A stretch of DNA of 64,000 nt. Origin: Anaerolineales bacterium (lineage in GTDB: Bacteria; Chloroflexota; Anaerolineae; Anaerolineales; E44-bin32). The notes under the pieces are model-generated. The model did no database searches and was not told where the DNA came from. It worked only from the letters and a program-made list of their open reading frames with translations. Where the stretch lies: assembly GCA_034430895.1 (NCBI GenBank), contig DAOUDW010000087.1, positions 4,408 through 68,407 on the forward strand, written 5' to 3'. Every line of letters starts with the position of its first letter. Within the stretch, counting starts at the first letter, position 1. Shown here piece by piece: positions 48,801-54,269 of this stretch. Made by a program: the position numbers and the translations under genes.

Positions 48801-51800
48801 GAATACAGCTACGACGCGAACGGCAACCGGCTCACGATTCTCGACGGCCGCAGCCACTCGACGACCTTCTCCTACGACGAACTCAACCGCCTGGAAAGCG
48901 AAGCCGATCCGCTGGGCAATACCACCAGCTACGCTTACGACGCCGTCGGCAACCGGGTCTCGTTAACTGACGCAGAGGGATTCACCACGAACTACGTCTA
49001 CGACGACACCGGCCGCCTGACCACGATCGATTACCCCGCTCCGGATGATGATGTGAGCTTCAACTACGACAACAATGGCAACCGTCTCTCGATGAGCGAC
49101 GGCGCAGGCACTACGAGCTGGGTTTACGACGAACTCGGGCGTGTGACCTCTGTCACCGATCCCTTCGGTGAAACGGTGAGCTACGCCTACGACGGCGTCG
49201 GCAACAGAGTCACCCTGACCTATCCGGATGGCGAGACCGTGAGTTACGCCTACGATTCGAGCGACCGCCTGACCCAGGTCGCGGATTGGGACAGCGGTGT
49301 GACCGATTACAGCTACGATTCCGCCAGTCGATTGTCAACGGCGACCCTGCCCAACGGCGTGGTCACGACCTACAGCTACGACAACGCCGGCCAACTGCTT
49401 GAGTTAACCCACGAAGCCGACGATACGACTCTGTCTTCCTTCAACTACACGTACGATTCCGTAGGCAACCGCACCCAAGTGGCTGAGTACTATCTCACAC
49501 CCGGCGGCGGCACTGGTGGACCTACGGTCAGCGTGCAGATCGTCGACGAGCGCGGCGATCCCCTGGCGAATCTGCCGGTTTACGCCTTCGACGACTCCAC
49601 CTACACCGGCTACCACGAAACCACGGACGAGAACGGCGAAGCTGCCATCACCCTGCCGGAAGGAAATTACCGCTTCCGCGTCGACGTCGATAGTGCACAG
49701 TTCTGGAGCGGTGAAACGAATCACTGCGCCATCGCCGGCTGCACGGAGGTGCTCTTCACCATCCCCGACCCGGTGCTGGTCAGCGTACAGGACACCAGCG
49801 GCACGCCCATAGAAGGGCTGCCGGTTTATGTGTTCGACGAAACGACGTATACAGGCAAGCATTCCACGACGGACGAGAACGGCGAAGCCATTTTGCGTCT
49901 CGTGGAGGGCAGCTATCGCTTCCGCGCCGATCCTAACGGCACGCAGTTCTGGTCCGCAGAAAATAACCACTGTGATGTGCCCGGCTGCACGCTGGCGAAC
50001 GTCAGCGTGACCATCCCGGTCACCGTCACAGTAATGGACAGTCTGGGCATGCCCGCCGAGGGCATCCCCGTCTACGCCTTCTCCGGTGGAAGCTACAGCG
50101 GCTACCACGGCACGAGCGACGCCAACGGTCAGGTTTCACTCACCCTGCCGCAGGGCGACTACCGCTTCCGCGCCGATTCAGGCGGCACCCAGTTCTGGAG
50201 CGGCGAGACCGACCACTGCAGCGTGCCCGGCTGCCTGGACGCGGCAGTGGAGATCACCCTGCCCGTCACTGTGACCGTGGAGGACTCGGACGGCACACCG
50301 CTGGCGGATCTGCCGGTCTATGCCTTCGATGAATCGACCTATACCGGATTCCACGCCGCGACGGACGCCAATGGCGAGGTCAGTCTGACCCTGCCTGCAG
50401 GTGAATACCGCTTCCGCGCCGATTCCGATGGCACACAGTTCTGGAGCGGCGAGAGCAACCACTGCGCTGTACCCGGCTGCAGCGCGGCCAGCGTCACCGT
50501 AACCCTGCCAGTTACTGTAACTGTGCTGGACACGGACGGCCAGCCTGCCGAGGGTTTGCCCGTGTATGCCTTCGACGAAACCACCTACACCGGATACCAA
50601 GCCACGACGGACGCCTCCGGGCAGGTTAGCTTAACCCTGCCGCTGGGCGATTACCGCTTCCGCGCCGACAAGAACGGCACACAGTTCTGGTCCGGCGAGA
50701 GCAACCACTGCACCGTACCCGGCTGCAGCGCCGCCAACGTTACCGTCACACTGCCAATCGTCGTCACCGTACTCGACACGGATGAACAGCCCGCCGAGGG
50801 ATTGCCTGTATATGCCTTCAATGAAACGACCTACACCGGCTACCACGCCACGACGGATTCCGCCGGGCAAGTTAGCCTGACGTTGCCGCAGGGCGAATAT
50901 CGTTTCCGCGCCGACAAGAATGGCACGCAGTTCTGGTCCGGCGAAAGCAACCACTGCACGGTCCCCGACTGCACGGAAACTTCGGTTACCGTGACGCTGC
51001 CCGTCACCGTGTCGGTACTGGATATCAACGAACAGCCGCTGGAAGGCGTGCCGGTCTACGCTTTCGATGAATCCACCTACACCGGCTACCACGCCACGAC
51101 GGATGCCTCCGGGCAGGTTAGCTTGACCCTGCCGCCGGGCGATTACCGCTTCCGCGCCGACTACGATGGCACGCAGTATTGGTCCGGCGATAACAATCAC
51201 TGCAGCGTACCCGGCTGCACAGCGGTTACCCTCGTCGCTGATGAAACCCCGCCCGTTGCCAACTACTACGGCGCAAAACGCAGCCTGGCAATGATCCTGC
51301 CGGTGCGTCTAGCGCAGGGCACGCTCATCGTCGTCACCGTGCTGGACACCGACGGCCAGCCCGCCGAGGGATTGCCCGTCTACGCCTTCGATGAGTCCAT
51401 CTACACCGGCGTCCATGGTACGACGGATGCCGCCGGCCAGGTTTCCCTAGATTTGCCCGACGGCGCCTACCGATTCCGGGCGGATTTCAACCCCCTATCG
51501 GGGGCAGGCGGCACGCAGTTCTGGTCTGGAGAGACGAACCACTGCACTGTGCCGGACTGCACGGCAGTCGGAATCACCGTTACCATTCCGCTGACAGTGA
51601 CCGTTCTGGATACAGATGGCCAACCCGCTGAGGGTTTGCCTGTGTATGCCTTCAACGAGTCCGCCTACACCGGCTACCACGCTACAACGGACGTTAACGG
51701 TCAGGTGAGTCTGACCTTGCCACAGGGTGCGTACCGTTTCCGGGCCGACAAGGATGGCACACAATTCTGGAGCGGCGAGAGCAACCACTGCACGCTGCCC

Positions 51801-54269: not shown

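Follow-up and report, generated by a model that had tools for sequence, protein, structure and literature searches.

A twelve-unit array of predicted beta-sandwiches inserted in the Rhs/YD shell of a giant Chloroflexota toxin-like protein

We analysed a 64,000-nt stretch of contig DAOUDW010000087.1 from an Anaerolineales bacterium (hereinafter the window), and specifically one giant gene on its + strand (39792..54269); nucleotide coordinates and residue numbers given without a locus name refer to the window and to the 4,825-residue product of this gene. A single intact open reading frame (ORF), unbroken over 14.5 kb, together with its Pfam domains, identifies the product as a predicted secreted polymorphic toxin of the Rhs/YD type whose long N-terminal region is adhesin-like. 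By homology to its relatives, the gene belongs to an Anaerolineales (Chloroflexota) bacterium. Close to its C-terminal end, the Rhs/YD shell of this protein is interrupted by an array of twelve CarboxypepD_reg units (1,016 residues, 3242-4257; nt 49515-52562, + strand). Alignment with an uninterrupted homologue shows the array as a clean excursion of 1,023 residues in what reads as one colinear shell. We infer, with an overall probability of about 0.6, that the array is an external two-armed stalk or adhesion loop of 7 + 5 units on a single cocoon.

The position of the insertion is defined by L070, a Chloroflexota homologue with an uninterrupted shell (L-numbered loci are relatives from contigs of species-representative genomes; P-numbered ones are matches from a profile search of protein representatives). 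Residues 569-1783 of L070 align to residues 2108-3237 of the window protein with an E-value of 2.5e-178, and residues 1779-2078 align to 4261-4532. The two blocks abut in L070, which has nothing to match the 1,023 intervening residues of the window protein. The shells of L060 and L081 also run through the insertion point without a break. The insertion site lies ~270 residues upstream of the DPxG motif and splits the shell about 80/20, into an N-shell of 1,139 residues and a C-shell of ~275 residues. The N-shell (residues 2103-3241; nt 46098..49514, + strand; Pfam and L070 alignment) starts with a DUF6531 plug-like domain (nt 46107-46283; 33.3 bits against a Pfam cut-off of 24.1). The C-shell (residues 4258-4532; nt 52563..53387, + strand; TIGR03696, PDB match, Foldseek and L070) consists of a strand, LEVTVELP, about eight YD hairpins and the Rhs core (nt 53148-53387), which closes with DPTGH (nt 53373-53387).

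The C-shell finds its best PDB sequence match in the bacterial teneurin-like protein (9pt5/9ifo, residues 1877-2146, E = 1e-24). When modelled by AlphaFold2 (AF2) with 16 homologues, its YD hairpins reach a predicted local distance difference test score (pLDDT) of ~84-92, and the top 35 Foldseek matches of the model, including 4igl and 4o9x, are all Rhs, Tc or teneurin shells. The piece that follows the insert is thus the predicted C-terminal cap region of a cocoon. The cavity of teneurin has a volume of ~130 nm3 (PMC6425310). Because the folded 110-kDa array would itself fill ~130 nm3, equal to that whole cavity, it would have to lie outside the toxin chamber. The original prediction, made from the DNA letters, had the array either protruding from the shell or dividing it into two half-shells; the colinearity with L070 and the cavity volume favour protrusion, while a split of 80/20 does not make half-shells.

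The array was delimited by Pfam, Tandem Repeats Finder and motif positions. PF13620 (CarboxypepD_reg) matches twelve stretches with 318.8 bits against a cut-off of 32.3, Tandem Repeats Finder reports period-246 arrays with scores of 848-1204, and twelve [N/D]HCxx[P/A][G/D]C motifs occur within residues 3310-4257, so that each unit closes with a C-x4-C pair. YD sequence restarts at TIDYTYD (residue 4276, nt 52617). These results and the intact ORF agree with the original prediction of tandem Cys-pair repeats within the YD shell, and the Pfam match agrees with its view of them as prealbumin/carboxypeptidase-regulatory-like. In two details it has to be amended. The unit measures 82 residues (246 nt), not 83, and although the Cys pair is present in all twelve copies, the form NHCxxP(G/D)C is not, with Ala in unit 1 (NHCAIAGC) and DHC in units 3 and 12.

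The two arms were assigned from motifs, Pfam and alignment. Arm A (nt 49515..51218, + strand) contains units R1-R7, the first of 76 residues and the next six of 82 residues, each ending with the [N/D]HCxx[P/A][G/D]C motif, and arm B (nt 51315..52562, + strand) contains units R8-R12. The linker of about 30 residues expected after repeat 7 is found in the unit alignment as 32 extra residues at the start of unit 8, i.e. following unit 7 (TAVTLVADETPPVANYYGAKRSLAMILPVRLAQ, residues 3810-3841; nt 51219..51314, + strand). Units 8 and 12 each carry a 6-residue loop insertion. The hydrophobic motif after the linker, LAMILPVRLAQG, could be a relic of a signal peptide. It was rejected as a special signal: LAMILP in this region aligns with VTVTLP, the first strand of ordinary units, and also matches the C-shell lead-in LEVTVELP.

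Pairwise identity between units is 52-87% for protein and 59-84% for DNA. The highest DNA identity, 84%, is that of R5 and R10, and the longest exact DNA stretch common to two units is 51 nt (R7/R10), all others being 32 nt or shorter; the expectation that the central copies would be very similar at the DNA level does not hold. Synonymous codon differences exceed non-synonymous ones among the central units (27 versus 11 for R5/R6, for example), and therefore the units have been kept by protein-level selection while their DNA drifted. The units are under purifying selection.

The AF2 model of R12, computed with an alignment, is all-beta with 7-8 strands, and its block-mean pLDDT is ~75-93 over most of the unit. 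Judged from this small all-beta sandwich and from a score above the Pfam gathering threshold, the unit is a predicted prealbumin-like beta-sandwich of the CarboxypepD_reg family. A single-sequence AF2 model of two units has low confidence (pLDDT 64), and its Foldseek matches, tandem beta-sandwich adhesin stalks such as SdrD B domains, invasin and SiiE, are generic and of weak confidence. The C-x4-C pair of each unit probably forms a disulfide in an extracellular milieu, and the 24 paired cysteines would fit an extracellular protein.

The array recurs in an orthologue, L001, which lies on an independently assembled metagenome-assembled genome contig from Anaerolineales W31_54 and is 80% identical to the window protein in the N-shell and 79% in the C-shell. 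L001 has 11 units, versus 12 in the window protein, and a longer Pro/Thr-rich linker after unit 7. Units 1-4, 7, 8 and the last are one-to-one positional orthologues with 74-87% identity; R8 and R12 thereby correspond to L001 units 8 and 11. Units 5, 6 and 9-11 are interchangeable among themselves, and the difference of one unit between the window protein and L001 arose by gain or loss within this group; unit 5 pairs best with L001 unit 5 (88%) yet belongs to the group. Complete genes with the insertion at the same site are present in L005, L006, L007, L014 and L059, with 10-16 units (10, 10, 11, 11 and 16 in the set), and four more species representatives have partial array genes. In relatives, Pro/Thr-rich linkers of 40-220 residues occupy the position of the mid-array linker. 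The copy number, predicted to be unstable, does vary, as seen from the 10-16 units in relatives and 11 versus 12 units in L001 and the window, but the changes are confined to central units and separate species. In L014 (ORF 128-12436, residues ~2365-3370), the 16-unit array is broken by three ~190-residue domains of the type DEFDSS..WSW..FRLER. A domain of this type, for which no Pfam name was obtained, also precedes the C-shell in L032.

Among 1.84 billion protein representatives, a profile built from the unit matches 3,363 with E-values of 0.001 or lower, 407 of them with E <= 1e-30. The best 150 representatives include 17 with N-shell, array and C-shell (8-15 units), 27 with array and C-shell, and 10 with N-shell and array. 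Because homologues routinely carry it, the insertion marks a subfamily. The named homologues come from Anaerolineae or Chloroflexi and are labelled 'hypothetical', 'YD repeat-containing' or 'RHS repeat-associated', so that a large and common subfamily passes under annotations as bare as 'hypothetical' or 'RHS repeat-associated' protein. The original prediction would have given way to a known subfamily if homologous Rhs proteins routinely carried the insertion. They do, 17 of the 150 with the full layout, but no published description was found; the literature covered, which did not extend to all journals, contained neither a paper on Anaerolineae Rhs proteins nor one on an array-in-shell architecture. 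The layout is common in uncultured Chloroflexota metagenomes. Likewise, the claim that the array departs from canonical architecture holds against the literature, in which carboxypeptidase-regulatory-like arrays are described upstream of bacterial YD scaffolds (PMC6425310), but not within Chloroflexota, whose homologues carry the insertion as a matter of routine.

The same site accommodates other modules. We classified 34 ORF placements in species-representative genomes, each having an almost complete C-shell preceded in frame by 330 residues or more. Array units precede the C-shell in 10 placements, other non-YD sequence in 14 (judged from the 300 residues upstream of the C-shell), YD sequence is nearby in 9, and 1 has a Pro/Thr-rich stretch only. 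Two of the 14 are L081, which is continuous YD on inspection, and some of the 9 have their YD sequence behind Pro/Thr linkers of ~170 residues (L026, L027); a few placements are strictly continuous at the site. Between N-shell YD and C-shell, Pfam identifies Laminin_G_3 in L013 and L040, PKD and GH115_C-like domains in L038, and a GH16-like domain in L039. In L023, reelin-subrepeat (reelin-B) and MAM-like modules lie upstream of the C-shell, and the N-shell was not seen on the contig. The inserts other than the array are mostly lectin-like. The splice point is an insertion hot spot of this Chloroflexota Rhs clade.

Six relatives (L022, L038, L055, P0101, P0110 and P0233) carry at this site an insert of another kind, in which two hydrophobic segments, the second resembling a signal peptide, flank an Arg/Lys cluster. 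In L022 and P0233, the second segment includes a lipobox-like sequence (LAAC/SASAC) followed by a Pro/Thr linker. The hairpin lies at residues ~190-240 of L022, ~3235-3285 of L038, and ~325-375 of L055 (ORF 8750-12472). CTERM sorting-domain models run on the first hydrophobic segment of the relatives gave sub-threshold matches only. Read from its sequence, this insert may form a hairpin in the membrane or mark where the chain is processed into two.

The protein that carries the array has the layout of a polymorphic toxin. Its Pfam domains comprise Laminin_B (residues 141-256), Big_1, DUF11, DUF6531 (residues 2106-2164), RHS_repeat and CarboxypepD_reg. RHS_repeat (PF05593) matches 28 stretches with an E-value of 5e-157, and the YD region, 1,139 residues in the N-shell plus ~275 in the C-shell, is of shell size. 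The Rhs-associated core TIGR03696 is matched at residues 4453-4532 (59.8 bits; NCBIfam cut-off 32.5). The core ends in APITSFDPTGH, read as a putative aspartyl self-cleavage motif, with SKDTWQG upstream. Given this layout of shell repeats, core and cleavage motif, and a further 293 residues at the C-terminus, the 4,825-residue protein would be classed as a giant Rhs/YD polymorphic toxin, with the sequence features of one apart from an adjacent immunity gene.

The N-terminus of the protein has a basic stretch and then a hydrophobic one ending in ALASAASDA, which by eye resembles a Sec signal or anchor; relatives have a transmembrane-like segment at the matching position. To judge from the basic-plus-hydrophobic N-terminus, the gene product is probably Sec-exported. 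The adhesin-type region preceding the shell spans 2,100 residues. The translation of this region has three Gly-rich repeats of ~330 residues (ATALGYPIGQGPG...GGGGHGG...GTIYWTVDDHLV) at window positions ~40600-43500 (residues ~270-1230), to which Pfam assigns no name; they are probably beta-helix modules.

The Cys-pair units are also found outside Rhs proteins. Arrays of 7-15 units occur in the non-Rhs giants P0247, P0248, P0262 and P0263. PA14, Big_1 and PD40 domains are present in P0247 and P0248, and CARDB in P0247 as well. Three of the four proteins scanned have an RCC1-like propeller (P0247, P0248 and P0262), C-terminal in P0247 and P0248, and in these three the array joins N-terminal PA14, CARDB or Big_1 domains to the propeller. 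P0263 has PA14 domains and no propeller. Because arrays of the unit recur in these non-Rhs giants, the unit appears to be a portable stalk element of surface proteins in the lineage.

The proposed role of the array in the window protein follows the same lines. The two arms of seven and five units would form a rod or a loop, joined at the far end by the short linker. As an extracellular stalk or adhesion element, the array would extend the reach of a contact-dependent toxin or help it attach, and could position the toxin-loaded cocoon relative to the envelope of the producer or the surface of the target. The cocoon and its swappable C-terminal toxin would function like those of other Sec-exported Rhs toxins. 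A related proposal has been made for lectin domains 'embedded among the RHS repeats', namely that they enhance target-cell contact (Zhang et al. 2012, PMC3482391).

Several observations weigh against this reading. Many residues are invariant across the units, among them R59, R61, D63, W70 and H76, many of them polar or aromatic, and this could mean a specific activity and not a passive spacer. The Pro/Thr linkers and putative membrane hairpins found at the site in relatives fit a tether or seam as well as they fit display. By sequence, no solved structure is closely related to the unit, the best match being 3e8v with an E-value of 0.0012. No immunity gene lies directly downstream of the toxin gene, where the + strand contains no ORF of at least 50 residues in 54270-55357, and for this reason the toxin-system context is incomplete.

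An alternative that we judge unlikely is that the shell is split, with the last ~270 residues and the toxin docking as a lid on the N-shell, much as TcC docks on TcB, and the array serving as a tether across the seam. With such a tether, the lid could be exported separately, exchanged, or opened to release the toxin. It could account for the long disordered Pro/Thr linkers at the site in L026 and L027, and the hydrophobic/basic/signal-like insert of the six relatives, lipobox-like in L022 and P0233, could yield two polypeptides. In addition, C-shell sequence is present in the orphan cassettes of relatives, in a few of them together with the last unit or units, and the Rhs core (query residues 257-376) has low confidence in AF2 when modelled without the N-shell. 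Other observations speak against a split shell. Homologues with uninterrupted shells exist, and L070 aligns colinearly; the orphan cassettes begin at many C-shell points without start signals, like silent cassettes; and all CTERM sorting-domain matches are below threshold. In the window protein itself the linker has only 32 residues and makes an unconvincing membrane span, since its most hydrophobic stretch contains Arg and Gln and enters the first strand of unit 8.

Another explanation, distinctly unlikely in our estimate, is that the units bind carbohydrate or protein ligands and set target specificity, in which case the array would not be a passive stalk. The lectin-like inserts at the site in other proteins (Laminin_G_3, GH16-like, GH115_C-like), the many polar and aromatic residues invariant in every unit and the embedded-lectin proposal of PMC3482391 all point this way. 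On the other hand, Cys-pair units serve as connecting arrays in unrelated proteins, a specificity determinant would not usually consist of twelve near-identical sites that lack a hypervariable patch, and the units of L001 differ little from those of the window protein although the toxin differs. A ligand-binding array is hard to tell from a stalk on present data.

A broader scheme, drawn by analogy and in our view doubtful, would place a built-in seam in the cocoon ~270 residues before the cleavage site, into which lineages would plug display or anchor cassettes. Members such as the six with the hydrophobic/basic/signal-like insert, read here as a sorting-signal-like helix, an Arg cluster and a (lipo)protein signal peptide, might export the shell as two pieces that reassemble outside, like TcB and TcC. 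The 7 + 5 array of the window protein, with its linker, might then be a decayed double stalk, from an ancestor in which the stalks held both pieces above the membrane.

Collapse, expansion or mis-joining of repeats during assembly is very improbable. Tandem 246-nt repeats are a known assembly hazard, an exact look-up of the 4,825-residue product returned no record, and the linker had no exact or peptide-pattern match in the genome and metagenome contigs searched, but collapse is unlikely because the units have diverged by 16-41% in DNA with exact shared stretches of at most 51 nt, the frame is intact over 14.5 kb, the independent assembly of L001 has units in matching order, and many other genomes have matching architecture.

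The stalk or loop reading can be set against known systems. With the WapA-type Rhs toxins that monoderm bacteria export through Sec, and with Rhs toxins in general, the window protein shares a YD cocoon, an Rhs core with the PxxxxDPxG self-cleavage motif and a C-terminal toxin that is variable and poor in GC, and its relatives share the orphan cassettes. Unlike them, it has an array of 12 domains and 1,016 residues inside the shell and the 2,100-residue N-terminal adhesin region. It also differs from Rhs effectors of the type VI secretion system: its N-terminus looks like a signal or anchor with adhesin-type domains after it and is not linked to PAAR or VgrG, and Pfam finds no PAAR/prePAAR, VgrG or other type VI secretion feature in it.

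In TcB-TcC, similarly, a large non-YD domain in the shell protein, a six-bladed beta-propeller, mediates contact with a partner, and the shell is in two parts (PMC6425310). The Tc propeller, however, is near the N-terminal end and plugs an opening, whereas the window insert is a linear array ~270 residues before the C-terminal cleavage site. Pfam finds neither SpvB nor a propeller in the window protein, and on this basis the protein does not qualify as a Tc BC component. As a large functional domain carried by a shell protein, the TcB propeller comes closest to the insert, but at the opposite end.

The bacterial teneurin-like protein (BiTLP, 9pt5/9ifo), which gives the best C-shell match, and the teneurins are surface YD shells that have a TTR domain as well as beta-sandwich arrays, some of them carboxypeptidase-regulatory-like (PMC6425310; PMC13018210). 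In these proteins, the arrays and the TTR domain are upstream of the scaffold and not inside it, and only the C-terminal 270 residues of the window shell resemble BiTLP. The shell of the window protein starts with DUF6531, and at E <= 0.01 Pfam gives no FN-plug or NHL match in the protein; with neither detected, it falls outside the teneurin-like proteins that Raoelijaona et al. 2026 define. Zhang et al. 2012 (PMC3482391) describe lectin and peptidase domains embedded among RHS repeats, which is similar to the layout seen here. Their work was published before the cocoon structures and regards the repeats as filaments; it mentions neither a fixed site nor arrays of 8-16 domains, and the word 'carboxypeptidase' has 0 occurrences in it.

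Among adhesins, SiiE, the SdrD B repeats and invasin, which are the top structural neighbours of the two-unit model (pLDDT 64), form rods of small beta-sandwiches joined head to tail as the array would. The array would be a loop, and not a free stalk as in these proteins, because both of its ends return to one protein body. To our knowledge, no solved Rhs, Tc or teneurin shell has been described with such an array inside.

Rhs cocoons are treated as closed, self-contained toxin containers. Here one fixed site accepts inserts as different as a 1,000-residue array, a lectin-like domain, a disordered linker and a putative membrane hairpin, which suggests an exposed loop or seam, apparently used to add reach, adhesion or anchoring. 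For structural work, the site poses the question of which loop is involved and whether the shell opens there. It also offers a handle on how polymorphic toxins are targeted in filamentous Chloroflexota, a group abundant in sludge and sediments, and on the engineering of cocoons that display binders.

The C-terminal toxin domain (293 residues, 4533-4825; nt 53388..54266, + strand) follows DPTGH and has a GC content of 0.40, against 0.56 for the rest of the gene. It matches no family in Pfam, NCBIfam, PDB sequences or a word-indexed protein search. Read by eye, the pattern LCGQIS ... GHWVVLSG ... MNPF makes it a candidate papain/C39-like domain. The C-terminus of L001 is unrelated to it and has an HExxH motif, despite shells that are ~80% identical; on this comparison of sequences, the predicted toxin beyond the cleavage site is polymorphic. 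In L001, a 266-residue ORF lies directly downstream of the toxin gene.

Several relatives contain orphan Rhs C-terminal cassettes, i.e. runs of 2-6 truncated ORFs of C-shell plus toxin downstream of the gene (L005, L020, L028, L043, L050, L055, L059 and L074). The last one or two array units are kept in a few cassettes (L059 12890-14752, L032 17802-19553, P0152, P0161 and P0141). As a general rule, these ORFs were rejected as separately secreted subunits, since they begin at many different positions inside the C-shell and have no starts or signals. The window contains no orphan cassette of C-shell plus toxin.

The 1.1 kb after the stop codon (54270-55357) is AT-rich, with a GC content of 0.435. 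Two adjacent 30-bp copies (TTTGYAsCATATyATTGCC.ATTTGTGAA) lie at 54757-54816, and a 17-bp repeat present 2.5 times lies at 54864-54905. In L001, the 30-bp doublet is also downstream of the gene (13269-13328), in the opposite orientation, beside an ORF that by eye resembles a DDE transposase/integrase. Among the neighbouring genes scanned in the window are those for MetRS, an acetyltransferase, M23, patatin and a methylase. Beyond the AT-rich stretch lie genes for a patatin-like phospholipase (55358-57364, - strand), a DUF4145 protein (57648-58007, + strand) and an N6/N4 DNA methylase with a RAMA domain (58137-59312, - strand), which could form a small defence or restriction island.

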